A stretch of DNA of 64,000 bases from Ramazzottius varieornatus (Eukaryota > Animalia > Tardigrada), in contig BDGG01000007.1 in NCBI GenBank assembly GCA_001949185.1, positions 1,384,730-1,448,729 of the forward strand, written 5' to 3'. Every line of letters starts with the position of its first letter. Positions within the stretch are counted from its first letter, which is position 1. The notes under the pieces are model-generated. The model worked only from the letters and a program-made list of their open reading frames with translations. It had not been told where the DNA came from and searched no databases. The translations under genes were made by a program, and so were the position numbers. Shown one piece after another: positions 3,887-36,798 of the stretch.

Positions 3887-3939
3887 AAGGTAACATTTAA
3901 AACTTCAAAATGATAACGAGACGTCTGCGAATAGATTGA

Positions 3940-8892: not shown

Positions 8893-11367
8893 TTTGGTGT
8901 CGTTCTTTGCCCAGGAATATTAAACAGCAATGTGTAAAAAAACTGATTATGATTGTTGGTGAAGGTTAACGCCAGTGTTTTTTGACGCTTTTATTTGGGT
9001 TGTTGTTCATTCTTTATGTATTAACGGACCATATTTGCGAACTTAATGGCGAACCTTGAAGAAACAAGGGTGAACGATCATGTTAGGTTGACAACGATGT
9101 TAATAAGGCAAATCAAACTGTTAAGTGGGGTAACATCGGACTGATGTTCAGAACGATTAACATTCCTGTCCGCGTTGTGAAAGAACGGTAATCCTTGAAC
9201 GAAGCTTGTCTCATGCTGGTCGACAGTAGCGTGAACTAGGCGACACCGTACATGTGCAAAGATACTCGAACCGATCTTGCAACAGAGTTAACGACCAAAT
9301 TGACGGACGAAGAGGTGTCATGAAAATATCATACGTCCGTTCTAACCATATTGCAGCCGTCTATAATGTCACGCTACAGTCACTCTTCCGGGTCATGGGC
9401 ACCCATGGCCTTATTTTGCTTCCTTGTATCTTTTGAACCCGTAGTCCAGTTTCCGTGATTCAAACAGCATACTCTGAAAAAAAGTCAGCTAGAGCTTCTC
9501 GACCACGTGACAGTCCAGTCGAAAATTCAAACAATCAACCAGTAAGCACCGGTGGGCGGACAAGGAAACAAGGGCCATGTTTGACTGCTTATCTCTGGTC
9601 ACGTGACAGGTTTACAGGAGAGTCTAAACGGCCAAAATTTGGCCTACACATCACTGTCCACACAGTTGCAAAAGAGAAAGCGGAGTTTTGCCGAGTAAGT
9701 AAACTACGGATACTAGTTTCTTCCATGCCGCAAACTCTCATACTTTTTTCCACAGAGTATATTGACGGGCTTGAAGCGCGGTCCGTCAAGGGATACGTAG
9801 ATGGTTTGCGTGGATCTGGAACCGTTACAGTCAGCAAACGGCTGGAAAAGCCTGCCCAGCCGGACAAGCCGTATCCCTTCCGTCAGTACGTAGTCGACGA
9901 TGCTGAATTACGCCAGATCAGCGACGCCATAGTAAGGAGAAAAAGATATGGTGGAACAAGGCAGGGACCAGGAGCGAAGGTTCTTCGACCCGAACAAGAA
10001 TCCAGGAATTCGAGAAGATATGGAGCACGTTTCATGGGCAGATGAACAGTCCGCTGAAAAAACGTGAGTACTCACGTTCCGTGGTAAGCGTTTTTTGTAA
10101 CTAGTCGCGCGTTTTTACGATTCTTTGTGTTCTTTGAACTAAGGCCATCTCTTACAGGTTCGGAAAGGTGCTAAAAGATAAGAAATCCTGTAACACAAGC
10201 GAGGGGATTACTTCAGATTCCTGTCGCAGCAGCTGAAGCTTGGCGAAGAAACCATCAAGAAATTTGCTTTCCCTAAACCTAAGTTAGACCCTAAACTTTC
10301 TGGCTAGGAATTACCACCTGTTTTGCTCAAGTTTCTTCAGACTGGGCCTTTAGTGTGTTGCTTTGGTTGCTTTCTTGAAAACAGTTCGTGAGCGTTCCTT
10401 ACTCCTGGTTATCGTTCTCGGTTCGCTAGCTGTTGTTTTTCTCTTGATAGCCAGTACATGATTTTGATTTTTTTTCCGGAATACGCGAAAGATTTTCCTC
10501 ATAGAGGATAAACTGTAGACGTCAGATCTGGCTCGATCGTTTCCCGTGGCTGAGTAAGGGATCGGCAAATCACCAAAAAGTTTTTCCCAGCACACGAACA
10601 GTACAAATTTTAATTGTCCACCATACACCGGTAATATCTTCCTAGCATTCTCTCCATGTACCACTAAGACACTAGCTGTGGATTGACTCTCCAATAGACT
10701 CAGCAGATCGTGCAGGTACTGACGATGGAAGCTGGACACTGATAGTAAAGGCTAGTCTATAGAGTCCTTTACCAGTGTCTTGGCCAGGTAATTTTTTCAT
10801 ATGGGAGGGTCAGAAGATATGTACTACCAAACAAAACCATGGTCGTGCGATGACCCATGACCGTGATTGTAATGGTAAAATGGCCCATGTTCCAGTCTAG
10901 ATGACCTACTCGGAAAAGACGTCTCGGTCTATCCGTTCTTTTCCCCACCGAAGACCGCGCTACCCCCATCTTAGTTTTTGTCTGTCATTTGCAGGAGAGC
11001 TTACGAAATCCCAAGTTCTCGGTCCACGTTCAAGCTGCTGAAGCGTGCTCTGCTTCATCTGTTTGGAGCTTCTGGTGATGGTCAAGACGTCTCCTTTCTT
11101 ACTGCGAAGTACGAACTTCTTCAATTACAAATAGCGGCTCTCTTTTCGACGATAACTTTCTCCTGGACAACGCTTCCCTCCTCGACGACAGCTTTCGTGA
11201 CGACCAGTCTCCTAGCCGACAGCTCTCCTCCAGGACGGTTTGTTCTCCTTATGTTGCGTAAGCTCTTCAAGATGGACCCCGTGCTCAAGGTGTCGTAACA
11301 GGGTGATTTCAACTACTGCGAACGATTTTGAAAATCTAATACAACTTCGCCGGCAGTGATGTTATTC

Positions 11368-12135
11368 TTAGTAATCTGGGGCTTGAAAGCCCTTGGCCTT
11401 ATGAATCGCTAGAACGTGGGCAGGTCAAGAACCGAGAGACTTCTGGAGCATCTCAAGAGGAATTTTCTTATACTCCTCCTGTGCGCATCTTATCATGCCC
11501 TTCTCGGTGGTGTAGTTCCGTTGCGCGAGTCGCTGTTTCAGGTAGCCGTTCGCAACGAAATCCATCGGCGACACATCCAGGCTGTTTGCCAACCATTCTT
11601 CCTTCGTAATATATTTCCCTCGGGATTTGAGCCATGAGATGACTTTCTTTGCGGTATGAGCTGGAGCACTGTCCATGTGAAGGATCACCTTCCACGCATC
11701 AGCTCCATAAAATTTTGGTACATCAATATCGAACATTGGTTTGAGAATTTTCTTGATGAAAAGATCGGCATTGACTTTGGCTTTCTGGGGTACAGCGTAA
11801 AGTCGAGTTGGACCACGGTAGGAATAGCCAGCAGCGACCATACGTTGGGCCGGAAACGAGGGGGATTTTACTGCAGTCGGGATCACTCGACCATCTTCAA
11901 CACTTTTTTTCGTCACGTACACGAAATCGGTCTTACCGTTCTCGAAGTCCAGCGGTAGCATAGCTTCTTCCATCGTCAGAATGTACCCGAGGTTCCCCGA
12001 AATGGTGTTGTAGAAATTCAGGGCAGGATCTTTTCGTTGTTTGATGGCTTTCTGAGACAGGAAATAAACTTTGGGCTTCTTGCGGATGGTGGCACCTAAA
12101 TCTTCGTGGACGATGCGGTGAATCGTGTGCTGGGA
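11368..12135 (-). mobile_element. Degenerate Tc1/mariner transposase (maT, DD37D-like), 5' truncated
   Basis: QHTIHRIVHEDLG...ILTMEEA...LHMDSAPAH...NSLDVSPMDF. First catalytic D is replaced by E, D-x36-D spacing here, internal stop near 11425. Confidence 0.85.
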
Positions 12136-12643
12136 AGAAGTCCGTTTCCGCTCGAGTGGTATGCTTCTCCCTCTGGCGAGTGACGTGGATCATGTTTCCA
12201 GCAGGCACGGCAGAAGATGACGTCATGGTCATGAAGAAGCCTCTGTACGTAAAGTGAAGAAGTGTCTTGTGCAAAGCTCCGTATCCACCAAGTCTGTAAC
12301 ACTGATTAGCTTCCTTGTTGACATGTGTTTTCGAACCATCAAAATTGACATGTGTTTTCGAACCATCAAAATTGACGTCGGTAGGTGACTGCAATGGATA
12401 GATAGAAATATAGTGAAACGCATAGGAACAGGAATAGGTACAGGAGTACAGTAGATACGACGGTTGTTACCCCATGAGACGGATAGCTAAGATCGGTTTA
12501 ATTTTGAACTTTCGCATGATCAGCAGCCGTTAGTCTGACTTTCGCTTGTTTCAAGCGGCATCATTCCTATACTATTGCCATTCGTCGAACAGTTATTTTC
12601 TCACCCTTCAAATTTTTTTTTCTGCCATCCAAACTCATTCATC

Positions 12644-13285
12644 ATGGAAGCCGCCTACACTGCCGTTGCTGATTCAACTACGACCAGCAAGCCTGAACGC
12701 AAAGACAAGCCCACCGCGCCGATCAAAACCGAGAAGAAGGGGAAGCGAAAGGCCGTCAGCTTTGATGAACCTCCGAACAAGATTCCTAACATTAAGGTGG
12801 AACTGGACACGGTGGCTCAAGAGGAGAACTGGAGTTCCAAGATCGAAAATGAGCGCTTCATCTACATCGCCCGATCGTCAGTGGGAGTTAAGATCTTTAT
12901 GGGTGAGCATCTGGCCAATCCTAGGGTGTCCACGCCATCCAGCAAGACCATCGAGCTGAACGTCGAGCAGTTCCTCACCTTCTACGGTCTCTTCCTCAGC
13001 GGCAAAGCGGAGTGTGCGGAGCGCAAGAACAACACCAAGGAGCCCGGTTCACTGTCTCCACTGTTTGATCTGTCGGGCGATGTCTACTTCACCTGGAGCC
13101 GTTTCCAGTCATCGGATTTGGCTATCGTTCGCACTTTTACCAAGCGTGGAAAGTCCAAGGATATGTACCCCACCAAGAACGGAATTTCCCTCGGCGAGAA
13201 AGTCTTCAACAGCATTATGGATTTCTTCAGAACCATGGCGAGTGGAGAACACTATCATCCATTTGGTTGTGTTTTTACTTTTTGA
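12644..13285 (+). CDS. Tandem PC4-like ssDNA-binding / transcription cofactor protein (Polinton cargo)
   Basis: LSGDVYFTWSRF...AIVRTF...MYPTKNGISLGEKVF resembles PC4 (DIR.....KPG.KGISL...QW). A weaker first repeat is PSSKTIELNVEQF. Confidence 0.65.
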   Translation: MEAAYTAVADSTTTSKPERKDKPTAPIKTEKKGKRKAVSFDEPPNKIPNIKVELDTVAQEENWSSKIENERFIYIARSSVGVKIFMGEHLANPRVSTPSSKTIELNVEQFLTFYGLFLSGKAECAERKNNTKEPGSLSPLFDLSGDVYFTWSRFQSSDLAIVRTFTKRGKSKDMYPTKNGISLGEKVFNSIMDFFRTMASGEHYHPFGCVFTF

Positions 13286-14215
13286 TTCACCTACCTCAAT
13301 TAAATTGTCGTAGACAAGCATGGTCACCATCATGACCATCTCATGCAGAGGGGAAGCGAAGGAGACGGCTACGGACAGTGTTCCCTGTTTGATCAAGGTC
13401 ATGGGTCCTCGACCCGTTCCACCTGGTGTCAAGTCAAAGCCGAAGATAGTAAATCCACGCCAGTAGGCCTCACGATCAAACTGAATTTGGCCGTTAGGTT
13501 CGTGTCGTTGACCCAAAGTGTTCAATAACCCATCGTAGGCTTCCAAACAGTGGTGCCTTCGAAAATCGGACGTAAGGCTTGGTCGGATAGCTGGTGCCAT
13601 CGACCTCCACACTGAGTTGGGAGATTTCATAGTGTTGAAAGTTAAACGGATTTCGACCCAGTTTTCCGCAAAAGTCTTCGCTGGCCACAAAACCAATCAG
13701 GATCACTTTAGGCAATGCCTCGATGTGAATGTAGGAGATGACGGTGCTTTGCACGCCTTTGCTGATATCCGTGGTTTTCATGACGGTGCGCTCGACGGCG
13801 TATTTGACCGACCTACGCTGCAGTTCTTCGGTGCTCTTGATCATGAAATCAGGAGCTGGAATGTATCGCTTGACTGAAACCTCGGGATTACGGATGACCG
13901 CTTTGTACTCTTTGTCAGGTGATGGGTCCCAACTTTGAAGGTAAAACTCTTTCCGGGCCGTTACCAGACGAATCCCGATTGCCACGCCAGTCAGCAGGGC
14001 TTTGTCTTGTTGGAAAAGATCACAAGCCAGCTTGCCCGATAACTGTACAGTCTCCACGCTGGGACAACTTACGACGCCAGACTGCTCCGGGATTCTGATC
14101 CAGCAGGTTCATTGACCCCGGTCCGTCAATTTTATACCCCGCATTGGCTAACACCGATTCCGCATTGTCCCTCGTATGATGTAACAGTGACGCCATGTAG
14201 GCTCGGTACGAGGTA
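13256..14215 (-). pseudogene. Polinton major capsid protein (double jelly-roll), C-terminal part, frameshifted
   Basis: YRAYMASLL, LSGKLACDLFQQDKALL, LPKVILIGFV...NPFNFQHY, GFTIFGFDLTP, VYDNLIEV across three frames. Confidence 0.88.
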
Positions 14216-14259
14216 AAACCAGCGAACTTTTCCATGCAAAATCGCATGGCGAACTTGTC

Positions 14260-16453
14260 TACTTACCGCAACTATTTCGTGGTATCTGTCCCCAAACGTA
14301 CGATAACTATTACGAAGTGCGGTGTGACCTAACTATTTTTCCGCAGAATTTATCCTGCCATTATACAGTACAAATGCTTCCGCGAGCATCTTTTACTCTT
14401 TCTCAACATGGAAGGTAAAAGGTGAACATCATTGAAAGGCCACGATAAATCAAGAAGGATATCACTTCCTGCGTGGCTTCTGTGTTGTAGCTTTCGAGGC
14501 TTTCTTTCCGGGAGGCTCTAACACTGGTTCAGGTTCCGGTGCCTTTCGCTTAGGTGCTCTTGATGATTTGGCGGCTTTAGCAGCAGCTTGGACGGCTTTC
14601 TTTCTGGCGGATTCCGCTTCGATTTCTGCCATCATTTCGTCCGACGTTATCAAAGCACCAGCTTTCAGTCTGAGCATGGTGTTCTTTCCGAGACGTTTCT
14701 TCTTAGGCGCTTCAGCCATCAGTGTCTTCGCCATAGCACCCGCAAGTACCATACCGGTGGTGAGACCCTTGAGAACGTCCTCGACACAGGTTTTTACCTC
14801 TTGCAAGCCATCGGCGTCAGTAATACCGTACTCTGCGCGCAGCACCTCCACCAGCTTGTCGTGGTTTATCTCTGACTGAACCTGGCGGATTCCGCGTTGA
14901 AAGATGGACGGATCGGTGTAAGGCTTGACTGTCTTTCGGATCATGTCGGGGTTGAATGGGAAGAGGCCACATTGTGCAAAGCCCGACTTGAGGTTTGTCC
15001 CGGCGTTGAAAGCGAACTCCTGCGGAAACCCGTCCGTTCGAAACCACAACATAACCAGATGGGAAAGCAAGGTATCCTTCGTTACCTAGAAGACAATCAG
15101 GTCTAATATTTCAACTTTCAACTCGTAAAAAACATACAAACTGATTCCCTTCACATACCGGTCCACCTGTTTTGACGCGCCGATCACGGAGGTACTTGTT
15201 CCATCTGTATTTAATTCCGCCGAATGCTGCCACGTCAAAAGGCTGAAGGCGAGAAGTTTGGCCAGACGGAAAACAGAAGATCACCACACGTCTGCCTGTC
15301 TCCTGGAAAAACTCTCGGCAATATCGAACAAGTAGAAGGTTGTTCACGTGAGAGAAGTGGCCGTCCACGAAGATTACGTTCTAGAAAATAAAAAAATCAA
15401 GAAGGGAATCCCTAATCATAACGGGCATTACGACTGACGTCACAAGCATCCTCATTTTTCAGAACAATTTTCACAATTGCACCTGAAATTCTCCGACGTC
15501 ACACATCAATATAAGCGAAACTTACCAGCACTGCTGTTATCTCGGGAAAAACGACTTCCTTGATGTAGTTGGCGAAGATCAGCTGGTCCATGTATCCGGA
15601 TTCATTTACAGCATGGTAACACATGTTAAAAGTGTCTTCCATACGAGACTTGAGGTGCAACTTGCCCGAGTATAAGGCCAGAAGCTTGAGCTGGAGTCCA
15701 GCAGCATTCCCACATGGTAGCACCGTGACACACTCCTTTGCGGTTCCGTTGTACTCAGACGGAATCTGCTTCATTCCTTTCCTCCCGACCACCCTGTCGA
15801 ACAAGTTGGTAGTATCAAATGCTGTCTCGTCCAAGTTCCAGACTTGCTCCGGTGTATTAAGGAACCCTTCATCGTACAGTTTCTGCAGCTTCGAGATGTA
15901 CTCCTCGCACACTTCCGCTGTCCAATCTCGGTCTTGTTTCCGGTTCGAGGCATGCGTAATGCGAAGAGAAATTTCGTCATGACGATCAAGAAAACTTCGA
16001 AACGACTGAGCGTTACAGGCAGTGTTCGGCAGACCTGTAATCAAAGAAAGGGATATTTAGCTGGCAAGTAATTGTCAGAGGGGATAACAGTAGTTGCCAA
16101 TCTTACCGAGTTCAACCGCTACCTGCGAGAAGAGCTGGTAGCATTGATATCGATTTGTGGTAATCCCTTTCGAAAATAAACGTAGCAAGCTCGAGAAGCT
16201 TGCAAATTTCTTTTATGAAACTGGCAGTGTTGCATTACCGTACCGCATATTGTTAGCGCGACGGAAATATATCCCGCACCTGGTTTCAGCGAAGACATGG
16301 TGGTGTGCAGCTCATTAACGATCCAGTAACGTACCCTCATAGACCAGAAAACGCGACATGCGCGCCTCTGTCGACTGGCTCAAAATTTTTCCCATAGGCT
16401 TTTTAACATAACACCAACCCCTCTTCCTGAAAGACCTCATAGGAGGTCTCCTG
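14260..16453 (-). mobile_element. pogo/Tigger-family DDE transposon with intron-containing transposase, nested in the capsid gene
   Basis: CENP-B-type HTH end (FRSFLDRHDEISLR), WNLDET, DGHFSH, SRLQPFD, SGFAQCGLFPFNPD and a K-rich tail. GT-AG introns separate the ORFs. One end reads TA|CAGGAGACCTCC on the minus strand (TA at 16454-16455); the other TIR was not found. Confidence 0.85.
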
Positions 16454-16455
16454 TA

Positions 16456-16680
16456 CCCGCACCTGAGATGAGACGATTACCCAAATGGAAACAGTGAGTG
16501 TAAAATGTTATCGATGGGACAGACTTGATCCTCTGGTCCCACGAAAGTCCAGTCGAGCCCTTTACTGCGTACTTTAATGGCCAAGTCCAGTTCAAGAGTG
16601 ACAGAGGACAGATCGAGAAGCCCGTTGCTGCTGACCGGAATGTGAAAGTCTTCAATGAGGAAAGCCATCTTCAGATAAAG
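16456..16680 (-). pseudogene. Polinton major capsid protein, N-terminal part
   Basis: FHIPVSSNGLLDLSSVTLEL...VCPIDNILHSLF...GNRLISG, which logically continues into YRAYM at ~14210. Confidence 0.75.
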
Positions 16681-16689
16681 TCGGGTACG

Positions 16690-17010
16690 GCGCAACAATC
16701 GTTTAAGCGGTGGTGCACGGATGGCTTTGCGTTTATGGCGATCTTGTTCTTCTTGAGGAGGAGCTAATCGTTGAACAATGGCGTCACGAGCGCGAGTGGT
16801 AACGTCCTTGGCTGCTGAGTTATGTGCCTCCCTTAAATGGGGCTCTGCTGCGTTAAATGCTTTGCGGGCGTGGGGAGCAGCAGCTGCCAACACTGGTTTG
16901 GCAAACGTGGCAATTTTGGCAAAAAGGGATTTCTAATTCTGTGGAAGTCCGGAGCCGTTTTGATAGACCGATCCTCGATAACGGACCATAGGGTTTCCAC
17001 CTCCTTGGAT
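16690..17010 (-). pseudogene. Polinton small core / membrane-active protein, frameshifted
   Basis: QGGGNPMVRYRGSVYQNGSGL then amphipathic FAKIATFAKPVLAAAAPHARKA, typical of the ORF between minor and major capsid genes. Confidence 0.6.
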
Positions 17011-17063
17011 GACGCCGGAGACTTCCTCATAACGCTTGGGATCAGGCTCGTAAACGCTTGGGA

Positions 17064-17910
17064 TCAGGCTCGGAGGATGAGATGACGTCGGAAATGCAGA
17101 TTTACCGTAGACTTGCCAGCGTGAAACTTCACTAAATCTCCTAGGTCGTTGGCCAAGTTGATGGTGATATTTTCAAAATTGGTGAGAAGAACGGGCACAT
17201 AATGTACCATATCAAAGCGTTCAGTCACAACCTCCATCGCTTCGCCTCTAATAGGCGCAGTTCTAAGATTTTGCGATACAGAATCGCCTAAATAGGAATA
17301 GTCAGCTACGTCACAGTACACAAACATCGATTGGTTGCCAGCTTTTAAGTTAACAAGACTTTGCCGACGTGCTTGATGGGAAACTCAGGATAGTCTTGGC
17401 CAACGTAGATCTTGCTGTCCTCATCCGTCGGTGATAAGATGCCTTGATTCAGGTCAAATCCCAACATCCCAACAAGAATAATGGAGTCAGCGTCAAAATG
17501 GACGGTAGATCGAGGGGTACCCAAGGAAATACACACACGTCGATCGGGTTGAATTTCGATCTTGAACTGTTTAACCGGTTCCGCGTCTGGATACGGCGGT
17601 AGAGTGCCTATCTGTCGACTGATGCAATCAATCAATGGTTGCGCTGAATTGTACATCCCAGCTGGTACAATATGAAATCTCGACCCAGTCCTTTGCTGAT
17701 GGGATAGTGAACAACTATCTTCTGATCCGTAGGAATGGTAAACATGCTTGGCATGTAATGTAGTTCAGGAAGGCACATCTCCCAGTGGCCTTTCAGGCTG
17801 ATGGAGTTCCTTAGCTTGGTGGTCCAGCTGGCTGCGTTGTTGTTCGGGTACTCTTCCATGCAGGCATCACTGGGTAAAGTCAGGTAGAATCCATTGTCGT
17901 CATGCAACAT
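17064..17910 (-). pseudogene. Polinton minor capsid (penton, single jelly-roll), frameshifted
   Basis: FYLTLPSDAC...YPNN.AASWTTKL...L.GHWEMCL.EL at the N-terminus; MFVYCDV...GDS...LR...HYVPV...I.I.L....G..VKF...LHFRR at the C-terminus. Confidence 0.88.
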
Positions 17911-18956
17911 GCTGGTATCCAGGAATCGCTTTCAGGTCCGTATCCCAACAACCTCACTAACTTTTCTCGTCGTCGATTACGAGTATGGCGCTGCAGTACT
18001 TTCTCGATCTGATATGTCCATTTCATATGATCGCGAACAAGTGACAATTCCGGTTCATAAAATTGGCCTTCAATAGCCTTGTTGCTGTTGAGGTTCTTTA
18101 ATTCGTACACCGGAACGGTATGTCTTTTGACTTTGGTGATTTCATAGATGTCAGGCTGAAAGTTATCCTCGTATCTCTTTTCGAATTCTAGTTTGTTCTT
18201 GGATACGCGGACGAAATCGCCAACCTTGTACCGAGGTACCTTTGACTTTTGTTGGAGCATCTTGCCGTATAATGCGTTGAGGACTGAAAGCGAGTTCTCT
18301 TGCTGAACAGTGTCCGGTTTTTTCCCATGGGCACTGTGTACGGAATGGTTGTAGGCGTAAACAAAATCAGGCAGCCGATCAATGTAACGAGTGGCGTAAA
18401 TGGACCGAAAGTATCGAAATATCCGAGTCTTGCGGGTGGGAATCAGCCGTTCGGCCATTCTGCATCTGATATAATTGTTCTCAGTCAAGGAGAGCACGAC
18501 TTCTTTCTCAGCCAGAAAAGTTTTGACCACTTCATCGCGAAATTCTGAGCTTTTATCTACTCGTAACTTTTACGGCACCCCCAGATCTTTGAAGACTTGT
18601 TGGAGAGCCGCTTTGACCCGTATTTCTTCTTCAGTAAGTAGAGGCTGTACTGATGCGCGTTTGCTGAAGCAGTCGACCACCACCAGCAGATGTCGTATAC
18701 CGTCGTTTTGCTCCCCATACTTGCTCATGTCGGCTAAATCAGCCTGGTATTGCTGTTAGAGATTGGTCACAACGATACGGTTCCGCTTGAATTGGCGTCT
18801 TACTGGCTTGCCAATTGTGTACGTATCGACGTGTTGCTGTGCTCGCTGAATCTTCTCCCGGTCTTCGTCGCCGTCGTGTGCACGTCTTAATCGCTCGACG
18901 CCACCAAGTGAGCCGGGATGACGTGGGTCCAGGTACTTCTGCCACAGGGCTTCCAT
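17880..18956 (-). pseudogene. Polinton retroviral-like (rve) integrase with C-terminal chromodomain
   Basis: YLDPRHPGSLGG, YQADLADM...NDG.RHLLVVVDCFSK, AER, YNHSVHS, YKVGDFVRVS, EGQFYEPEL, YQIEKVL...LLGYGPESDSWI; at least two in-frame stops. Confidence 0.93.
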
Positions 18957-19039
18957 TATTACAGCAGTTACCCACACATGATATGTGAAAGTAACGAAAA
19001 AGCCGAAGGACCGAGGGTAAACACCCGGCCATGGTTAAT

Positions 19040-19915
19040 TTAGCGAAGGACGATCCTGCGAGACTTCAATCCTCCCGCTTGCGGTTTCGTTCTTTTTGGT
19101 TTAGGAAGCCTAAACTCCGTACTGCTGCGTTTAAGGGTAGAGGCTCGCTTTTTATTATGATGACGTTTATCGATGGGATAAACTGGCTTTCGTTTTTGCC
19201 CCTGCTGGGGTGTTTCAGCAGGATTGGCCACTGGCTCCGACTCTGTGACGAAAAATCCATCAGCTGTTTCATCTTGCAGTTCCTGATGACGTCGCTTTGC
19301 TTCCTCCACCGCATCTGTCTTTCGTTTAGATCGACGCACCAGAGAAACAGTGGCTACTGAAGTCACGGTGGGAACGCGCTGGGGTGAAACTTCCACGTCT
19401 GGTCCTTGATTCAGCCGCTTGTTGGACGACTCTTCCTCGGCTTTGCGTTCCTGTCGTCTAGCCAGAGGTGCCGTGGCGACGGAAGTAACACTGGGAATCC
19501 GCTGAGCGGTAGGCTCTTCTTCCTGATCATGGTGTTGTCTCTTACTCTCCCCCTCCATTTCACCCTTTCGCTTTTCCCGAAGGAATATTTTTTCGGTAAG
19601 AGCAGTGGATGCAGTGAATTGCGGAGTAGAGTCAACTTCGGGAGTAGATGGTAACGCACAGATAGGGGCTGCTTGTGGAGGAACGCTGATGGCGCGGCCT
19701 GACTCTTGATGTTCGTTGGTCAAAGCCATGTATCTTTCCAGGGTGGCGCTGAGCATATCGTTTCGTTCCCATTCATTGATATCGGGGCGATTACAGATGG
19801 ATCTGATCAAACCTGTCACGGTTTTGACGTCACGAGCTTCGGCTGGATGTGACGCTGGCATCTCTTGTTTCTGAGCATCCAGAATCCTTTTGGGCACTAT
19901 GCAATACTCATCCAT
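19040..19915 (-). CDS. Polinton hypothetical basic protein with internal duplication
   Basis: Open 291-aa ORF upstream of the integrase; repeat QRIPSVTSVATAPLARR / QRVPTVTSVATVSLVRR; K/R-rich tail. Confidence 0.6.
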   Translation of the reverse strand: MDEYCIVPKRILDAQKQEMPASHPAEARDVKTVTGLIRSICNRPDINEWERNDMLSATLERYMALTNEHQESGRAISVPPQAAPICALPSTPEVDSTPQFTASTALTEKIFLREKRKGEMEGESKRQHHDQEEEPTAQRIPSVTSVATAPLARRQERKAEEESSNKRLNQGPDVEVSPQRVPTVTSVATVSLVRRSKRKTDAVEEAKRRHQELQDETADGFFVTESEPVANPAETPQQGQKRKPVYPIDKRHHNKKRASTLKRSSTEFRLPKPKRTKPQAGGLKSRRIVLR

Positions 19916-20270
19916 TACTAATTAGAGTAGATAGAACCGAGGCAACGATGGAAAGTGTGGCTCCGATGAATCCGCCTTGTTGCAGGATTTGCTTCTTCTC
20001 TTTACTAGGGTAACGTTTCAGGGCCAATAGTTTCAAAGGGCGTGTCCAACGACGACAAATGCGAGCATCATCGTCACTTAACGTCACTGTATTTTTGACA
20101 ATATCAACAGCCTCTAATAAAATAACTAATAATAATAACAGCCTCTTCCTCTAATACACGCAGTTGGTCTTTTGTCACAAGATCCAGTAGGACTTTCCGC
20201 TCGCTGGGTTTTAGTCCCTTGAGCGTGATAACGTGGGGCATTAACTTTTCGACCCGTTCGGACGCCTTGA
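19908..20270 (-). pseudogene. Polinton small conserved protein with QxGGF + hydrophobic C-terminus
   Basis: ...RPLKLLALKRYPSKEKKQILQQGGFIGATLSIVASVLSTLISNG*; its stop overlaps the start of the next ORF; frameshift near 20110. Confidence 0.65.
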
Positions 20271-20400
20271 GCAACAAGAAAACTGATGTCATCTTTAAGC
20301 GAAATTCCTCTTCTCAGCCTTAAATAGTCAGGCGTGTCCGCTTTCATGTCAATTAGCAGTGGAGTATATGGCGCATCGGTGACATTGAATATCATCGGGA
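20270..20400 (-). pseudogene. C-terminal remnant of Polinton packaging ATPase
   Basis: VTDAPYTPLLIDMKADTPDYLRLRRGI resembles the AT..PYGYLLID....TP..LRLRTNI tail; the Walker A/B part is absent. Confidence 0.65.
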
Positions 20401-21110
20401 CGTCCAGCAAGTATCGTGATGGGGGAAGTGACCAACGAGATCATCGGACATAGAGACGCGACGACCACAATAAGCGCAAAACACAGTACGTGGAACGTTA
20501 GAGAAAAACATTACCTCATCTTGAGCCAGCTTCAGCGCTGTCGCAGAATCCTTGACTGGACTCATCGGATGTAGCATCGTCCTAAGACGTCTTTCTACGG
20601 TTTCTTAGCCTTTAAACTTGATGTGTTCTTTGACGAGGGCATCTCTTTACTCAGCAGCTCGCCATTTGATCAGGTCGGTTGGCTCGTGTTCGCTAAACTG
20701 TACTCCTTGTCGGGCTATAAAATTGTTCCACAGCAGGTATTGGCTGAACGTCGGTCATCCTTCGATGTTCATGAAATCTTGCTCTTTGGTGAGCTGAGCG
20801 TCGTACTCCGTTCCATAGTAATTCCGAGTTTCCCGGCTGTACTTGCACAGGACGAATCCGCACTCAGGACGATGACGGATGTGTTCAACCATCGAAGAAT
20901 CGGTGTAGCTCCAGTGGTTCAACAGCAATCTGCAGTGGTAACATTCAACCAACGCGGCCACCGTTGGCCAAGTGGTATGGTTGTCCGATATCAAAATTTT
21001 GTCAGTCATGGTAAGAAGTGAAACGAGTTTTGAAGTCGCTCATCAGAGGGCTTTTAACTTCACTGTTCTCGTTGCTCGTACAAGGCACACTGGACCGGAG
21101 TGGAACATCC
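20400..21110 (-). pseudogene. IAP-like gene with two BIR domains, frameshifted
   Basis: VECYHCRLLLNHWSYTDSSMVEHIRHRPECGFV (C-x2-C-x16-H-x6-C) and ERRLRTM...LAQDEVMFF...VFCAYC...HHDTC. Confidence 0.75.
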
Positions 21111-21379
21111 ATGTAGATTCGGGATATCCAGTTTACTTCTGAGCGATGTTCAGGCGAATAAGAAATGCGTGTCTTTCGTGTGCCGGAATAAGTTCCAGTA
21201 TCATCTTGATATCCCTTTATCTATTCCTATCCCTATACGTTTACCTATCCCTTTATGTATCCGTTCACCTATCCCGTCACATATGCACTAGTCTGTCTAT
21301 ACGGGAATTGCTCACTACATTCCCTTATTTCTTCCACACATCTACGCTGAGCAAACTCAGACCGAGTTTGTCTCATTCC

Positions 21380-21873
21380 ATGTCACCTGCCGTCTTCGTT
21401 ATGGGTACCAGAGTCGTACTGGACTGTGACTGCTTTATCATTAACCAGAAGCCTTACATCAAGCAGTTGGCGTTTTGCGTGGTGGACAAAAAGAGCGGCG
21501 GAAAACATGCCAACAGTCACATGTTCGCTTTTGAACTACCCCCCTCTCCCACCGCTGCCGCGGGCTGATTTGGTGGTCGAGAGGACTTTACGCTTCGCAC
21601 GAGGTTCCGGATGCTTTCAGTGCCCTCTTCGATTCTTACCTGACCACAAGACCCGCCGACGTTTATTTTCACGCCAAGGGTCTGCAAAATTGTCGCTTTT
21701 TGGAAAATGGGATACCAAACATCCGAAACCTGGAAGACCTGGGATGCCCACGATTCGACCAGCTAACTGACAAGGAACAGAGTACCCAGGACAAGGTTGA
21801 AATCTTTGCGGCATGGCTACACGACCAGAAATCCGAAACATTGTCGCCACCTGCACCCTCGGATGCAGCCTGA
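21380..21873 (+). pseudogene. DEDD-like exonuclease-fold protein of Polintons, frameshifted
   Basis: VVLDCDCF...PYIKQLA N-terminus and, after a frameshift, AKGLQNCRFL...IRNLEDLGCP. Confidence 0.55.
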
Positions 21874-22379
21874 ATCTGGAACACATCGAAGATAACGTTC
21901 CTCTAACTCTTCACACTCCAAAGCTCTTTTTCGGATTAATTCTCTGTGTCCTGCATCCCTACAAAGCCGACTGTCATCTGTATAGGAATGGTAAGATGAC
22001 GGTTAATGGAGGATGTACCCTGCGGTCGTCCAAGAGCCTCGCACGACGATTTTGCAGCCTGCTACGGGACATTGGATACCAAGACGCACAAGTGACGGAC
22101 TACAAGGTTGTCAACATGGTTGCCTGCTGCAATTACGGTCAGCGCGTACTTCTAGAGCCGCTATCAAAGAAGCTTGGAGTTTTGTATCATCCCGATATTT
22201 TTCCTGGTTTCACTATTCGTTTTCCGGGATATACAGTAGCTTTGTTTCACAGCGGGAAAGCCAACTTCCTAGGAGCGACAAGCACACTGGTTATCGATGC
22301 AGCGTACTCAGAATCAACGATGATCAACGATGACTCTCTTATCATGAGTAAATTGACATCGCTTGTTCTGACGAATTAA
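21813..22379 (+). CDS. TATA-binding protein (TBP) homolog encoded inside the Polinton
   Basis: Both TBP repeats are present: PEIRNIVATCTLGCSLNL...PKLFFGLI...LYRNGKMTVNG and YKVVNMVACC...YHPDIFPG...LFHSGKANFLGA. Intronless, open 188-aa ORF. Confidence 0.9.
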   Translation: MATRPEIRNIVATCTLGCSLNLEHIEDNVPLTLHTPKLFFGLILCVLHPYKADCHLYRNGKMTVNGGCTLRSSKSLARRFCSLLRDIGYQDAQVTDYKVVNMVACCNYGQRVLLEPLSKKLGVLYHPDIFPGFTIRFPGYTVALFHSGKANFLGATSTLVIDAAYSESTMINDDSLIMSKLTSLVLTN

Positions 22380-25300
22380 ATCAAAATACGGAACAATCAC
22401 AATCTCACGCGTTCGCAACATTTTCAGCATAGAAACAAAGGTGATCAAATCTTTGGCTTGTCTCTTCAAGACGAATCCCTTCATCTTGACTACCATCTTC
22501 CCATCGTTGGTGACGTAGGCGTAGGACTTGGGGCCCATTGTGGCGAAACGGGTGATGTGCTGTCCGGGCTTCAGCTCACTGGAGAGGTTGCCAAGGACGT
22601 TGCCCACAGGAGGATCGACGGCACTTTCACGGCTCACGAAGACAACGGAATCAGTATCTGTAATCAAAGCAATGGTCAGTCCGCAATGGTCAGTCAGCGA
22701 GAAAGAAAAACCAAAGCAAAATTTACCGAAATACAAAATCCGTTCTGGGCGAGTACTTTCCACCATGTATCGTAGAAGGTGTAAGCGAGCATAACATGTG
22801 GTGAGGGCTGCGATGACCACGTTGACGGTACCATTCTGGTCCTCGAATCCTTCAGCGGCTTTGTACGGCACCTGTACCGTGTCGTCGTTGATCAAGTCCC
22901 ACGATGACACCTTGCTCTCCCCAGACAGCATCCGTTGCCAGAATTTGCCGGGATCGGTCAAGAACTCCGTATTACCACGGTTCTCTTGCATGCCGAAATG
23001 CCCCAAAAGCTACAAAGAAAATGAAATTTACAGTACTTATCAGAACGATGCATACTTTCAGGGTGCTTACCTGTTCAGGCACAACTTGGCTAAGGCTCGG
23101 AGGCCGGGATTGAGTTTAATGTTGACTCGGTCCAGCTAGATACCTTCGTGCTCCAGAAATTGTCCTACATACGAGTCCTTCTGCAGCGTTTCACAGTCAT
23201 CCGGGTATCCACTGGCTTCCGTCTTGATCTTGTAGAATAGGTCGATGTAGGGTCGGAAGAGCTCGTCTTTGGAATCGGCCCAGTGGTACACCTCGTGGAT
23301 CTTTCGAACGGTGTATCCATGAGCCGTAGCTGCCTCGATCTTAGGGGAACACCATGTCCCGGTTAGCGTTCGCTGACCATCAGAGTGCTGGCACGGACCT
23401 TACTGTTGTGTCTCGGCGCACTTTTCGACACAGGGCGAAGACCAGCTTCGCGCTGAACTTCAAGGGAAGGACAGGAATGTGGAGGTTTCGTGGAGAAAGT
23501 ATATCGCACTTGATCAGACCAAAGCTGAGCTGAGTCTGAGAAGTTGTCAGTGATCCGCTGATGGTGAACGATTGGATACCTGAAGAAAACAACAGTTCAG
23601 TGGAACGTCCAAAAGAACTAGAAAATAGAATACTTCCACATGACTTACCGACAGTTCCTGGACCCAAGGATACTCCGAAATGACGTCATAGTGAAGGATC
23701 TTCGCACCGGGACCAACTTCGTGGTGGAGTTTGAGACCGTTGGTCCGACCTCCGAAGAAAGCATCACGAGGATGGAGGGGCTCCATGGGGACAAATTCTT
23801 TGAGTTCTTCGTCTTCCCGGGCTTCTTGGTTGAATTGGCATTCCCAACAAGTCACTACCTCGTAATGCCGGCCTTCCAAGTATCTCTGCCGAGCCATGGT
23901 GTCATTGTACACTTCCTTCATGGTCTGCTTGCGAAGCGGATGAAGCGTGTCGGGTGGAAAACACGAGGGGCATCCGTGATAGAAACAGCCGTGGAACTCG
24001 AACACCATGGCTTCGCAGTAGCCATCCACGAAGAACTTGCCAATCTGCTTCTCATGGCCGTTTCCTCGATGGTCGATATTGATGTCGAGTCTACGAGCTG
24101 TCCATTCCAACCACTTAACACCCACCACTGACTGGAGACGGTTCTGGCCCTGGCTGGACAGAATAGCAATCTGGCCCTTCTGCAAGAAATTGGTGCGCCA
24201 GAAGACACTGCAGAAACCGGCGACAGTAGCAGCTGAGACGAAGGGACAAAGGCCATTGGTGATGGTCATGTACAGATCCCGGAACTGCTGACAGCAAAGA
24301 CGTAAGACGGTGACGTCCATCCGGCAATAGGTGTACATTTCCTTCTGTACGTCGTATTGGTTGCTCTTTTCCCTCGATGCTTGTGGTACCATTCCAGGAA
24401 GGTCTGCTTCTCGCTATCGGGCATGTTGTTGTAATCAAAGTCCGCCAGGGAGGGATATTCTATCGGTTCGGTCAGGTTCCAGTTATCAGGTCGGTTCAAC
24501 TTGTGGGGGAACGTGTCTTTGCATACCCTACTAGAAGGAGCAGACTTGGAGAATGCCGATTATGCCATCATGTACTCGGATTTGGACATACCAGACGATA
24601 TGCCTGCACTGGAACCATTGCTGATAAGCTCACCTGAGAACGACACCTTGCAGACCAAATGTCACTGTGGGTTATGGCCACTGTGGGTTGTAGCTGGCTA
24701 CTGTCGATTATAGTTCAGCGAGTCCCGAAAGTGAATATGGAACTGCTCCACGTCCAGCTGGATGATCTTGTTTCCGTTCATGAGCTTCGGCATGATGCCA
24801 TTGTTGACCAGCTACTGTAGAATGAAGTATCCATCAAAGGCCTGAAACAGAATATAGTGAAAAAGCTTCGTTCATGAGCTTTACTGATCAACAGTAAAAC
24901 AAATATGATTTACGTACCCGGAAGTTATAAGCAATGACGTGAAAGCCCTTATGTTTCTCTTGAAGGACGAAGCGACACAGATCTTCAGAGATGTCACGTC
25001 CAAACGGCTCATCCTCCGCTGGAGAGACTTCTTCCCCTCCTTGGTCGTCCTGTACCACAGCCATATTGGGGATAAGTCGACCGGTTTCTTCATCGACATA
25101 CGTCTCGAAGTCAAAGAAGAGGGAGCGAGCTTGCTGGTGACGTTGACGATCCGCAGTGGTGAAGGAGAGTCCTTCCATATAGCATTTGTGGCCCTTGAGT
25201 TGGTAGCTGCAACAGATGTGACAGAAGCTGACGTTACAACAATGCATGTTGTTTGGACTACGTATCCGAGTGTTGACGGTCTTTAGGCACTCCATGCAGC

Positions 25301-26775
25301 GGTACTTGTAACTGCAGAGGGCTTCGCGAACTTCACCCCTGACTTGAGCTTCGGACTTGTGGTAGTTGAAACAGTCTACACCGTTAAACTGCAGATCACA
25401 CTCGGGACAGCGGATCTTATTCTGTTCTTCCCGTGGACACTTATGACGAGGACATGCTGGACAGCGATGTTCACAACGATGCTGTCTCCGCTGGTCACAC
25501 TTGTCACACCCTAAATTCATCCAAAAAAGAAAAATCGACAATACGTCACGTAGTCTAGTGAGCCAGGAAAGACAGAACAGCAATTACAGTAGCTTTTCTT
25601 GAAACAGCCGGCCAGTGACGTCAGTAGATCAAAATGATCGTTATGATGCTAGAGGATGACGCTTTTGTCAGCCGGAGGCCCATTATGAACAAAGCTGTTC
25701 AGGTGATTAGCACTGCAGACGCCAAGTTGGAAACCAGGAAGAACCTTCAGAGGAAAAAAGAACGAGATGGGAAAACTATTTTTGTATCTTACGTCACAAA
25801 CCACATCATTTTCGGATCGTGCAAATGTTTTAGTACGACGGACAGAAAATCTTTCACTGTGGTCACTGTGGTCACTTCCGCCTGGAAAGCATCAGCATCA
25901 GCTATACTGTAGGCACGAACCGGAATTCCTGCTTTCCGGATAAGTTCCAACGCTGCATTCTTTTGAAGAGCAAGTCTAGCATCCTGCATCTTCTTGTAGG
26001 TTGCTCGATCGTCGTCCAACCTGGAAATTCCCACAACAATAGCTCGAGCCATGCAAATGTTGTCAACAACAATACTGGTGCTTTTGGACAGTCGATTGAG
26101 GAGGGCGGATGGTACATTGTCGATGGTTTCCCCGCTGGGTGGTGTGGCGTAGCTGACAACGATATTGAACGAGTCGTCGAATTTGAGGGCTTATTGAGAG
26201 TTCAGTACCTTCTGCACTTCAAACATCCATCTATTCAATGTCAGCTGTGACTTGAACATGGGCGGTGTCTAGATGGGAATGTCGAGTGACTCGGTATCGA
26301 TGCGAAGTCGGACGATATCCCGTTCGCCAACGTTAGCCAATACGACATCGATGATGTGATGCAAGACGGACATCATGGTGGGAACAACTTCATCGAAGGG
26401 GACATCTTGCATCTCGTTGATAGTGATCTTGTATCGGTCGAAGGTAAGGCCGTACTCACCGGAGATCATTCGTCCATGAGGCGTCACGTTGAGATGATCG
26501 GCGACCGGAGGAAGATCACGAGGTGCTCCCCCAAACTGACCGTTCTACGCGTCATCCAGTTCCATCATCTCACGAAGAGCGTCCCAGTCCTCCCAATAAT
26601 CGTCTTCGGCACACATGGTCCCGTCGCCCAAGCCACCAATCACCCCGTTCTCCACGTCTTCCACCTTCATCATCTCGAGGAGAGCATCCCAGTCCTCCAA
26701 ATAGTCGTATTCGTCCCTCACCGCTCGGAAAAGCTCATCCCGGTCGAAGGAAACATCCATGTCTTCGTAATCCAT
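22314..26775 (-). pseudogene. Protein-primed DNA polymerase B (Polinton) with spliceosomal introns and frameshifts
   Basis: Exo I FFDFET; Exo II IAYNFR|AFDGYFIL; YCRMDV; endonuclease-like insert FEFHGCFYHGC; AFFGGRT; motif A HYDVISEYP; motif B KLCLNS|FWG; motif C YF|DTDS; GPKSY; N-terminal DNICMARAIV. Confidence 0.93.
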
Positions 26776-27125
26776 GATCAGAAACAACAGAATGTCAAAA
26801 GTGAAGGCGTCGAATCCGCAAAACACCAAACGAACGTCACAAAATACAGTAGGTCAGTCTACGGGAAGAACACTGGATCTGCACAGAGCACGAATGAGGA
26901 AGTCAAAAAACGACAAGTGCAGAAAACTGGAGATCGACAAAATGACACGATACTACGTCAAGTCGCAGCAAAAAAGGATAGATGTGAAGTGCGGATAGAA
27001 TGGTGCAGAGTGCAGCTGTTTATCCGAAACCATGACAGCCTCCCGTCTCTCTCGATTAGTTTCTCATTTCGAAGGCTCGAGCAGCATTTCTAGTCAAACC
27101 TCCACTCTTTCCATATATATCCATC

Positions 27126-27800
27126 ATGCCCGCTTCGAGATGGAACCTTCGAGGGCTGCGAATCTCACAGTTCAACCGACAATATCGCAGTACTCGTAGT
27201 GTGGACAAGATGTATCAGCCTTTCGACCTAATCATCTCCGACCACGACTACCGTCATTATGTGCACCGTCGCATCCTGAACTCTGAACAAGGCAAACACC
27301 AATGGGAACTCACACCGGAGCAAAAGGAGCGACTCCTGGACCCCAACGCGGAAGTCACACCGGCTCTGATGATGGACTGGCTGTTCTACAACCCAATTTC
27401 TCATCGCCGCAACCGGGTGTTTGGACCCTACAATATCTTACCCGAAGTTCCGGAATCCATGCTGTCGGAGTTTCGCCAATGGCAGCGGATCAAGATCACC
27501 GATGAGATCCATTCTGCTTGCTGGGTAAATCTCTACAGATCGTATGAAAATCGAAATCTGTCTTTTAACTTTGGACGCTATTTTGGTTTTTATACTGACT
27601 TCCAGCTGGAAGATTATCGTTTAGCTACCAATGGCTTTTACTTTGATCCACAGCATAACACTGCCCAGTGCAACTATTGTCGAACCAAGATGGTCAACAG
27701 CATCGATGAGGAAATTCCAGCAAAACATAAACAGTCTTGTGATTATCTGTTTGTCTACTGGCTTTGTGAAATCTGGAATATGCTGTATGCAACGAAATAA
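27126..27800 (+). CDS. Polinton-associated protein with C-terminal BIR-like domain
   Basis: Open 224-aa ORF; YRLATNGFYF...AQCNYC...HKQSC. Confidence 0.55.
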   Translation: MPASRWNLRGLRISQFNRQYRSTRSVDKMYQPFDLIISDHDYRHYVHRRILNSEQGKHQWELTPEQKERLLDPNAEVTPALMMDWLFYNPISHRRNRVFGPYNILPEVPESMLSEFRQWQRIKITDEIHSACWVNLYRSYENRNLSFNFGRYFGFYTDFQLEDYRLATNGFYFDPQHNTAQCNYCRTKMVNSIDEEIPAKHKQSCDYLFVYWLCEIWNMLYATK

Positions 27801-28079
27801 ACTTGGAAACCTTCATCAGTCTAGAGTGCCTGGGAATGAGTAACAGAAAAGAAGCGGTGCTGGCCTTGTGCCAAAGGGAATTGCCTCTGACGTTACTGAG
27901 CCAGAAGAGAGACGCTCAAACACCCAACAACCAGTACCTCAGTATGGGCGACTCAGCGTGGACATGCGGCTTTGGCGAACCAACCGAAAGTAAAGTGCGC
28001 CACTCCAGCGGGGCCGTTTCCATGGCTGCCATATGGGCCCCATAGACTTTTGGCGTAGCCCGTAAACTTAACATAGCTC

Positions 28080-28399
28080 TTCGCCAAATGGCATACAGGT
28101 TTCTTCTTCCGTCTTTGTGGGATAGGATTGTCCTTCGAGCAGAGCTCAGCAACTTTCTTGATTTTCGTCGGTGTTCTGATAAGCGGTGGTCCAGGTTTCT
28201 TCTTTTGAATCTTTGCCGGGGAATTTTTGCAGTCTTCACTTCCGACGCTTCTCGATACCTTCGATACCGTAGATTTCACCACAGTATACCCTAGTTACCC
28301 TTCCTTCGCCAGTTTCTTTATATTTATGCTTTTACTGTAATTAGGTCTTGTAAGGGCTAAAATACGGACGCTGAGGTCCTCAGAGATTGGAGGAGGCAT
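28080..28399 (-). mobile_element. N-terminal fragment of a maT/Tc1-like transposase
   Basis: MPPPISEDL.VRILAL...KKLAKEG*...KSTVSKV...RTPTKIKKVAELCSKDNPIPQR; internal stop and apparent deletion. Confidence 0.6.
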
Positions 28400-29588
28400 G
28401 ATCAAGTTTTCGGAAACAGCAAAACGATCAAAAAAAGCCCACAAAATTAGTCCTCCTCACGACGAGCTGTTTGTGTCGCAAACGGTTGATTTAAAATTTG
28501 AGTTTGCTTAATCAACGGAAACTAGTCGTGAGTGAGGCAAAAATGCGTTTTACGAAAGTCTCGGAAACGGGAGCGGGAATGCGCGAGTTTTGCGAGGTAG
28601 GTTTGTAGGCAAACTGCCTCCTGAGTCTTGACTAGGCTGAAATTCATGGTTTTCTCTCTGGCTAGTCTCTGTCTGTCGATATTGCCGACACTAATAGGTA
28701 TCACGAAGCCCATGCGTGAAACGGTATCTCGCAACGTGAAACACTGTGCAGATAGAAATCAGCTGAGAAGGGAAAATTTGAAATTTTGAGTCAAGTGTGC
28801 AGAGAATAATCCGTTTTCGCTTTCAAGATAAGCAGCCCTCGAATAGCTCATCCTGAAAGCAAAACTTCGTAACCCACTTTCAAGATCAACTCAATCAACG
28901 GAGTTTTACGGTCTGTCGTGAGGAGGACTATTGTCTATCAGCTGATTTGCTCGGCAATCAAACTGGTTGATTACCTATTTTTCTGTTCGTGTTCAAAATC
29001 GTTCGCAGCAGTCAGAATCACCCTGTATGAACATCAGTTGATAGTTTGGCCACACGATATTCATGGTCGGCACTATAGTCAACGATATTTGGGCTGTGGG
29101 CAAGGTTCCTCAGAAGTCTGGGGTCATAGCGTAGAGGCACAGCTGATGAAATTTGAGAAGGACAAGGGAAGGCTTCGGGTTTTTCATGAGAATTCTCGGC
29201 CTCCACATGGCAAGCCTCCATTCCTACCCTTAGGCACCCTGCCCCCTAGGCCCCTACCTAAATTTCCTCGACTATGCCTCTACGCCGTGACCCCAGACTT
29301 CTGAGTTCTGCGGAACTCTGCCCAGAGGCCCCAGACTCCATTTGAGTAAGCCTCTACTCTCTTTTGAGTAGGTCTCCACCCTAAGCCTGGGAGCTTAGTT
29401 TCTGTACTCGTACCCAGTATCCAATCTGGTCCATTGTGGGACGTGTGATGCGCCTCGCCTGACCTCATTGTCTTTTTTGCTTTTTCAAATCTCCGCTGGT
29501 TATCGTCAGCCAAGTCAAACAGAGAAATCAACCAGAATAAAAACGGAAAGTCGTACGTTGTACGTGAAAACACAGCAAAGATTGTCTA

Positions 29589-35500: not shown

Positions 35501-36798
35501 GTGATAGATGACGCGTTCGACAGGGACGGAATGGGGAGTAGAAGCGAAAGCCATTTGCAAAATGTGCTGGAGAAAGCTTTGGAAGGCGTCGAAGAAGGGC
35601 CAGCGGGAAAGCACGCAGATAGACTTGCTGGAGTGGAATGTGTAGTTGGGTATGTCTTCGGCCGGGGTATCTTTGAGGAGATGGGCGACTTGGCCTTCGT
35701 CGAGCGAATCTTGCGGATATGGCTCGTAGAAAGACAAGGCTGCACCGTACAGCTTCTGGACCGACTTGATCTCTGAATTGTACACCTGAAATCCCAAACG
35801 AACAAAATGGGCAACAATCACAGAGAAATTCCGGAAAAGATGTCATACTTGATTATGGTTTCCCGAGACGGTCAGAACGAATTTGGCAAAGACCGGTCGC
35901 GGTGACGCCGTGTTCTTCGGCCAAGCTTCCAGCGAGGCTCCCATAGGCATAGCGAACAAGCTGACATCGAGCGGTAAAGGAATCGAGGAAAGATCTGCGG
36001 TCGGGTACCGAAAGAGTAAGCTGGGCTGGTACATGAGGAAGTTCCGCTTCACCACGGCCTTCTTGTAACAGAGAAAAACATCCGAACCCAGCAGGGCGTT
36101 GTTCAAATTTCTGTCTGCGATCTTCCAGAAAGTGTGGGGAGCTTTCTCGTCTTTGATCACGACACAAACGTCTGTCACGACCAGATCGTTTGGGGATAGG
36201 TATTCAGGGTTCGCTCGCTTGAAGACGATGTAGGTCTGACTGTTAGATCCATTATTCACGTTGGCGTTGTTTCCCGACGGCGTCGCGGTGATCTTCTCGC
36301 AGTTTGCTGTCAGATTATCCCTTCCTGAAAACCAGAAGACATTCAGTATGACGGCCGAGTTCTGGTACCGAGAAGAAAAGTCTAGATCAACGGCGAAAAT
36401 CATTCTTCGTGCGGCCTGTACGAACACCCCATTCGTATCCGTGCCAAAGACCCTGACGGAGACGCAGGGCTGTGCCCAAGATCCTTACCTTCAAAGTGAA
36501 CTCCAATATGGACCAGCGGTGGTTTATCTCTCCCCCGACGATAACACAAGAACAAACTGTGGCATCGAAAGCTTCCGAAATTTAGGTCAGCAACGTAGCC
36601 CGTGGGTGTAGATTCCACACAGGTATATCCGTCGGGAACAGGTTCATCCAGCGTACGATCTATCACAGCTAAGTCAGTAATGGGATCCTTGATGTCCTTA
36701 CGGACGAAGGCCTCGCTTTCGTCGGTGATCTTCAAGGGTGCCGCATTCTTTTCCAAACCGGCAACGATAAAATAATCCGCTCCCCATTGGTCGTCCAT
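29589..36798 (-). CDS. DENND4: DENN domain protein 4 (Crag/DENND4), multi-exon
   Basis: MABP N-terminus ([20 protein letters not shown]), uDENN/DENN ([14 protein letters not shown]), dDENN, PPR-like repeats ([16 protein letters not shown]) and C-terminal [13 protein letters not shown]. Confidence 0.95.
31710..32050. repeat. Palindromic repeat array (about four modules) in a DENND4 intron
   Basis: Successive TGGCGCA/TGC(G/A)CCACT cores ending at ~31775, ~31860, ~31928 and ~32008. Confidence 0.8.

Follow-up and report, generated by a model that had tools for sequence, protein, structure and literature searches.

A TATA-binding protein of a distinct short clade in a Maverick-like fossil of the tardigrade Ramazzottius varieornatus

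Vertebrate Mavericks carry polymerase, integrase and capsid-type genes, most of their copies are degraded, and many have no recognisable inverted repeats, at least in the portions of Barreat and Katzourakis 2021 (PMC8097293) that are openly readable; in these respects they resemble the insertion that we describe here from the tardigrade Ramazzottius varieornatus. In contrast, a TATA-binding protein (TBP) gene is not one of their eight core genes, and intact vertebrate Mavericks are intronless, whereas the polymerase gene of our insertion seems to bear introns. A TBP-labelled gene in a mid-size Polinton-related DNA element does appear for MELD viruses with adintovirus-like PolB (Starrett et al. 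2021, PMC8502044), although in the accessible text it is only a label in the legend of Fig. 5, for non-animal eukaryotes and without analysis; no TBP was found on the animal adintovirus maps (Fig. S2), as far as their labels are readable as text, or in the supplement text of the same paper. This label is a brief precedent for the TBP of a Polinton-like element, which the initial annotation did not regard as a standard Polinton gene.

TBPs are better known from viruses of other kinds. The accessible parts of Ravarani et al. 2020 (PMC7221094) describe TBPs of large DNA viruses in which DNA-binding positions are kept and the signatures of host regulators are lost, as in the proteins studied here, but nearly all of these viruses carry their own TFIIB, and we found none in the element. 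Structural comparison of our protein with viral TBPs gave matches at just 7-17% identity, so it is not closely related to the TBPs of these large viruses. The TBP of beta- and gammaherpesviruses, ORF24, directs host Pol II to late genes (PMC7498053, available text), which would be a likeness if our best explanation holds; unlike the bare core of ~170 aa in the element, it has its own N-terminal Pol II-binding domain and needs five other viral proteins. Sporadic TBP genes have also been reported in mirusvirus-like elements (PMC10675990, available text).

Compared with cellular TBP (PF00352; yeast 1ytb, human 1cdw), the family of short proteins to which our gene belongs shares the two-lobed saddle, three of the four intercalating phenylalanines, both asparagines and most of the phosphate-contact basic residues, but it has no N-terminal extension, is ~30% identical, and carries a tyrosine at the F116 position and a polar inner face. 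We found no analysis of TBP in animal Mavericks in the literature covered, which was mainly openly accessible papers. Mention of TBP was not found in the accessible part of a preprint (10.64898/2026.10.13.758929), and matches to "TATA" in PMC12220804 and PMC13037468 were an author's name.

The insertion and its genes

Within the window, by which we mean the whole 64,000-nt stretch of DNA that was analysed, we identified a Maverick-like insertion of 15,972 bp at 12136..28107 (unstranded; ends uncertain by ~20 nt), a length that includes a 2.1-kb secondary insertion. Contigs of two sequencing runs (X1 and X18) link 12135 directly to 28108, and thus present the empty site of a Tc1/mariner-type element, with 20 other letters at the joint. 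This transposon (11298..29026, minus strand) has inverted ends of 35 nt that are 89% alike, and its transposase (Pfam DDE_3, E 0.07) is split by the insertion into 11298-12135 and 28108-29026. The secondary DDE transposon (14260..16409, minus strand; Pfam DDE_1, E 0.002, and joints) lies within the capsid-type gene, and spliced transcripts exist for other copies of it. The Tc1/mariner-type element is therefore split by the Maverick-like element, which is itself split by the DDE transposon; a high-copy small element with inverted ends is additionally present at 28448-28930. Neither terminal inverted repeats (self-comparison of the window) nor a cysteine protease (Pfam scan of frames) were found for the insertion, which is a Maverick-like fossil and not an intact Maverick.

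In the surrounding DNA, we noted a 50-nt palindromic repeat family with 30 copies, often paired 72-84 nt apart, at 694-4843 and 30245-59862, which is absent from 4.9-30.2 kb. Downstream of the element lies a spliced host gene (29473-36800, minus strand), which we take to be a DENN-domain, DENND4-like gene, and whose splice joints revealed three of the sequencing runs (X11, X18 and X23) to be RNA.

The TBP gene had been assigned to a Polinton/Maverick in the initial annotation, and it indeed lies inside the insertion together with a protein-primed polymerase, an rve integrase and a capsid-type gene. The family B polymerase gene (22314..26775, minus strand) matched Pfam DNA_pol_B_2 (E 2.5e-6 and 1.1e-4) and PHROG 1907 (E 6e-7); an acidic ORF at the 5' end of this region contains two 88-nt direct repeats, 76% alike (26528-26720). 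The retroviral-like integrase (17883..18956, minus strand) is broken, and was read with an X at one stop; its rve match (E 2e-7) scored 31.7 bits against a cut-off of 32.6, and it ends in a C-terminal chromodomain (E 0.07). The capsid-type gene (13292..16668, minus strand) was mapped by tblastn from its homologues in four pieces, interrupted by the transposon and missing its 3' end. It has no Pfam or PDB match, and presumably encodes the major capsid protein, a double jelly-roll in Mavericks/Polintons. Its homologues are 433-451 aa long at 54-81% identity, and intact ones occur in metagenomes and in the tardigrade Paramacrobiotus, in which two are named F54H12.2-like.

A likely minor capsid (penton) gene was read in three frames at 17064..17910 (minus strand), presumptively from a motif, and had no library match, PHROGs included. 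The segment 19040..20400 (minus strand) holds a 291-aa ORF, a small ORF that we call cupiennin/pX-like and what we take to be the remnant of a packaging ATPase, with a C-terminal motif near 20250-20400; these labels were assigned from motifs, and none of the three had a library match. We additionally identified two BIR (inhibitor of apoptosis) genes, one broken (20758..21204, minus strand; Pfam BIR, E 1.2e-8) and one open (27126..27800, plus strand; E 2e-5), and an open PC4-like gene of ssDNA-binding or coactivator fold (12644..13285, plus strand; Pfam PC4, E 2e-4, under the curated cut-off). No TFIIB-like gene was found among the 122 frames scanned.

The TBP gene itself had been described as wedged between a DEDD-like nuclease gene and the 3' end of PolB. 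The first 61 nt of its frame (21813-21873) are shared with the upstream neighbour (21380..21873, plus strand), and the last frame of the polymerase lies tail to tail with the TBP gene, as described; the nuclease label, in contrast, was not backed by Pfam, NCBIfam, PHROGs or the Atlas, and the neighbour is split over two frames.

The TBP gene, its copies and its family

The TBP-like gene (21813..22379, plus strand) is an open ATG-to-stop frame of 188 codons, homologous to TBP up to ~22314, with two Pfam TBP stretches (PF00352, E 6.4e-27). Residues 4-159 of its product align with yeast TBP (E 4e-20) with gaps of just 1-2 residues. Because the two proteins align end to end with only such short gaps, the gene is intronless and lacks an N-terminal extension, as had been proposed, and the same alignment equates F39, Y57, F130 and F145 with yeast F99, F116, F190 and F207, bearing out the F, Y, F and F previously read at the intercalating positions. 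A structure predicted from a 150-row alignment had a mean pLDDT of 91.7, was confident over residues 1-170 and collapsed in confidence beyond residue ~170; an earlier model from a 10-row alignment (pLDDT 51.5) was set aside. The model matched solved TBPs at TM 0.76-0.85 and rmsd 1.4-2.8 with ~30% identity, and in it the two TBP repeats form the predicted saddle, so that profile search and modelling alike returned TBP.

All nine full-length close relatives stop at 171-172 aa (a tenth, P0013, is partial, has a different and longer tail, and was left out of this count). Contigs of other genomic copies diverge from the window at 22314, where the last frame of the polymerase ends on the opposite strand. 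On the strength of these two comparisons and of the collapse in model confidence, the final ~22 of the 188 codons are read-through into the antisense strand of the polymerase. The claim of a 188-aa intronless open ORF with both TBP repeats is thus right as to frame, repeats and lack of introns, but not as to length, and the copy is decayed. A public gene model of 114 aa named for R. varieornatus, RvY_12335, equals the first 108 residues, in keeping with this animal as the host, and then, as judged by eye, enters a predicted intron (22138-22252); we take it to be a prediction artefact, since none of the six listed joints backs that intron.

We investigated the decay of the window copy against 39 family-conserved columns, defined as those at least 85% conserved among 44 relatives. 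The window protein departs from the family at 8 of the 39, while each of three close relatives departs at one. With P0003 as outgroup, the window branch took 14 changes and the P0002 branch 3 (p 0.013), and the phosphate-contact arginine equivalent to yeast R105 is lost. We conclude from these substitutions that the window TBP copy is decayed, a fossil, and the openness of its frame does not imply a functional gene.

Other copies were read from contigs of sequencing runs, and not from the whole genome. In the DNA run X1, we identified at least three versions of the TBP gene: one is the window copy (0 differences), a second has 43 differences in 423 nt, and a third has frameshifting deletions and lies on a contig of 2,291 nt that also covers polymerase sequence, with the BIR promoter region, TBP and polymerase in the order of the window. 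TBP is therefore linked to the polymerase in a further copy of the element as well. By hand count, 11 of the 14 listed base differences between the window copy and the second copy in the first 53 codons change an amino acid, a figure that rests on the 40 differences listed out of 283; the first and second genomic copies look neutrally diverged. RNA run X11 contains a 749-nt contig of the second TBP copy, and X18 contains 283 nt of another copy, whereas X15 and X23 had no contig on the gene and were weighed neither way. These RNA-run contigs come from copies other than that of the window, and do not show a working mRNA, since the polymerase contigs in X11 have DNA-like joints.

Profile searching identified 36 proteins with E values no higher than 1e-10, and a search of cluster representatives added more short relatives. 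The window protein groups with 44 short metagenomic relatives (median length 173 aa), which were chosen by a shared motif, leaving out fragments and near-duplicates absent from the 150-row alignment; they are single intronless ORFs on metagenome contigs. The closest of them are 85% and 72% identical to it, followed by others at ~46-50%. In a tree of 85 rows, all 36 family rows lay on one side of a branch with SH-aLRT 96. Under a mixture model, the family together with a second group of short divergent TBP-like proteins (P0063, P0068, P0127, P0142 and P0183) was supported at 100/98, and the family alone weakly, at 75/78. The animal label was checked for tree row P0141; the rows included neither TBP nor TRF2 of the host itself.

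The initial annotation had named, as the outcome that would speak against it, an ORF that nests within host TBP/TRF paralogues as one retrocopy, with none in any other copy of this Polinton family; neither half of this outcome was borne out. Grouping of the window protein with animal-type TBP was rejected in a 29-row set (p-AU 4e-8), as was grouping of the whole family with animal TBP (p-AU 0.008), and the gene is present in at least three versions in X1. We therefore regard a lone retrocopy of host TBP, landed in one element by chance, as extremely improbable: the gene is intronless, as a retrocopy would be, but its ~30% identity to solved eukaryotic TBPs stands against 85% and 72% to intact relatives, and both the other copies and the p-AU value contradict it.

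TRF2/TLF paralogues have lost most of the intercalating phenylalanines. Grouping of the family, which keeps three of them, with TRF2/TLF-type proteins was compatible with the data (p-AU 0.135), and depends on one long-branch row that we assume to be a TLF. This value might suggest that the element acquired the family from small invertebrates, in which it would be a cellular paralogue, and that one copy has been domesticated by the host as an extra TBP-related factor, as might the RNA-run contigs of X11 and X18 noted above and the fact that the relatives are known from proteins alone. However, most base differences in the second copy alter an amino acid, that copy also spans the upstream gene of the element, each relative is one ORF without introns, and the TLF join is one between long branches, leaving this origin very unlikely.

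We additionally scanned other sequence collections for the family. Viral contigs gave no loci in any of five scans, with TBP, its alignment, capsid-type and polymerase queries, and prokaryote genomes gave none either. A scan of metagenome contigs returned 19 TBP loci at 30-40% identity, none of this family. By eye, the 19 appeared archaeal or archaeal-viral, and in L006-L018, contigs from aquatic metagenomes that may belong to archaeal viruses, a divergent TBP gene sits within a common, virus-like gene order. The closest relatives of the capsid-type gene are at 81, 69, 66 and 58% identity, a ladder that resembles that of TBP (85, 72, then ~46-50%), as co-inheritance would give. From this matching ladder, the single-ORF form and the situation in this genome, we infer that the 44 relatives are Maverick-borne.

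The DNA-contacting face and partner surfaces

Conservation was counted in the 44 relatives in yeast numbering, and compared with 17 canonical TBP rows. The family retains F99, F190, F207, N159 and K211 (each 44/44), R105 (42/44) and N69 (38/44, with 5 gaps). Elsewhere on the DNA-contacting face it has changed almost uniformly: F116 to Tyr (42/44), T112 to His (43/44), L114 to Gln (38/44), V122 to Thr (42/44), T124 to Asn (44/44), V213 to Asn (43/44) and T215 to Leu (42/44), at all of which positions the 17 canonical TBPs have the standard residue without exception. A Phe to Tyr change at the F116 position is reported to influence TATA binding (PMC7221094, accessible text). We also found two of the three changes of TBPm3 (I194F, V203T, L205V), an altered-specificity yeast mutant that binds TGTA as well as TATA (PMC1636458, accessible text): 36 of the 44 relatives have V203T and 42 have L205V, but the family has no Phe at 194 and carries many further changes. 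As this face is both different and near-invariant among proteins of ~40% identity, it would point to a specific, non-standard site.

On the partner surfaces, the N-lobe residues N91, E93 and R107, which have a role for TFIIA, are not those that prevail in the family. TFIIB is bound through two stirrup acids (PMC7221094, accessible text), of which the E188-equivalent is acidic in all 44 relatives, while the E186-equivalent is Glu in 15 of 44 and His in the window copy.

These surfaces bear on two roles other than the starting of transcription at late promoters. The protein could be an element-borne decoy or repressor, which occupies promoters or soaks up TFIIB, NC2 and Mot1, damping host or early transcription. 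N-lobe regulator contacts unlike those of cellular TBP, and a single constant stirrup acid, would suit such a role, as would the failure to find a TFIIB gene or a late box in the element and the presence of other host-modulating genes, the two BIR genes. Against it, the 44 relatives, divergent as they are, have the altered DNA face almost without variation, which argues for a specific site, and viral TBPs are known to act in viral gene transcription (PMC7498053 and PMC7221094, accessible text); we consider a decoy doubtful.

Alternatively, the protein could bend DNA, perhaps at the termini, in the service of replication, integration or packaging and not of transcription, which would suit a TBP gene that adjoins the polymerase in an element with a PC4-like gene whose product probably binds ssDNA. 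We think this unlikely, as the acidic TFIIB stirrup residue is kept in 44 of 44 relatives, and a precedent was not found in the literature covered.

A proposed role in transcription of the element

The polymerase gene contains candidate GT-AG introns of 61-76 nt on the minus strand (22658-22726, 23010-23070, 23580-23648 and 24842-24917), of which the first was read by eye and falls under the scan threshold. They sit inside conserved motifs, and nearby host introns measure 63 and 69 nt. A donor-acceptor scan of the polymerase gave seven matches on the sense strand and none on the antisense strand, and the alignment of the second copy breaks at the edges of two of the candidates. No spliced polymerase RNA contig was seen, and the polymerase contigs in X11 have the same joints as DNA, i.e. 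are unspliced. Candidate spliceosomal introns in the polymerase gene fit the host Pol II context that had been envisaged for the element.

The proposal that host Pol II is redirected to late promoters, such as those of capsid genes, found no such footing in the DNA: there is no shared TATA-like box upstream of the capsid-block genes. The exact motif TATAAAC is absent from the element, and its one-mismatch matches are at chance level (125 seen against 125.6 expected), and no common box was seen by eye upstream of 11 guessed starts, in searches made on an old, partly deleted copy. The sole repeated motif upstream of genes was GGATAG, which lies ahead of the PC4-like and BIR genes and not of the capsid block. 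Seven sense-strand occurrences precede the PC4-like gene and the two BIR genes (12396, 12481, 21227-21269, 26976 and 26993), among them a cluster upstream of BIR gene 1 (21205..21275, minus strand) detected by self-comparison and an upstream-region scan. Only one of 2,000 shuffles matched this count, for regions and strands picked after the motif had been seen; GGATAG is a candidate early-promoter element.

Building on the fold, the position within the element, the further copies, the polymerase linkage, the clade and the decay reported above, we favour as the rather probable function of the TBP of an active element that of a promoter-selection factor for host Pol II. Host Pol II would transcribe the element in the nucleus, as the candidate introns of host size in the polymerase gene suggest, and the compact gene, overlapping its neighbour, would yield a small TBP. 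This protein would bend minor-groove DNA through its retained aromatic and asparagine contacts, and would likely read a box other than the standard TATA, because its inner face carries family-wide polar substitutions. Its partner would be host TFIIB, as no TFIIB gene was found in the element, recruited only partly in the manner of cellular TBP, with the N-lobe regulator residues lost and one stirrup acid kept. The likely purpose would be to switch on the capsid and packaging block.

More tentatively, and with rather less than even confidence, we suggest a widespread clade of animal Maverick-type viruses with a minimal, altered-specificity TBP, a natural counterpart of TBPm3, that with host TFIIB and Pol II reads a virus-specific box, giving elements of 15-20 kb a late-gene switch like that of herpesviruses. 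If true, such a switch would be evidence for an autonomous nuclear viral cycle of these elements.

The TBP at this locus is genuine, borne by the element and part of a distinct clade of short proteins, and its copy here is dead. The value of this fossil is as a second line of evidence in a tardigrade lineage, and as a way into a clade that numbers at least 44 proteins, whose intact natural members of ~170 aa are suited to a site assay. The family could supply an orthogonal TBP-promoter pair, and with it the range of viral TBPs would reach beyond large DNA viruses to animal elements of middle size. For the expression of Maverick capsid genes, and for the question whether Mavericks are autonomous viruses, an element TBP with a conserved, rewired face offers a direct test.
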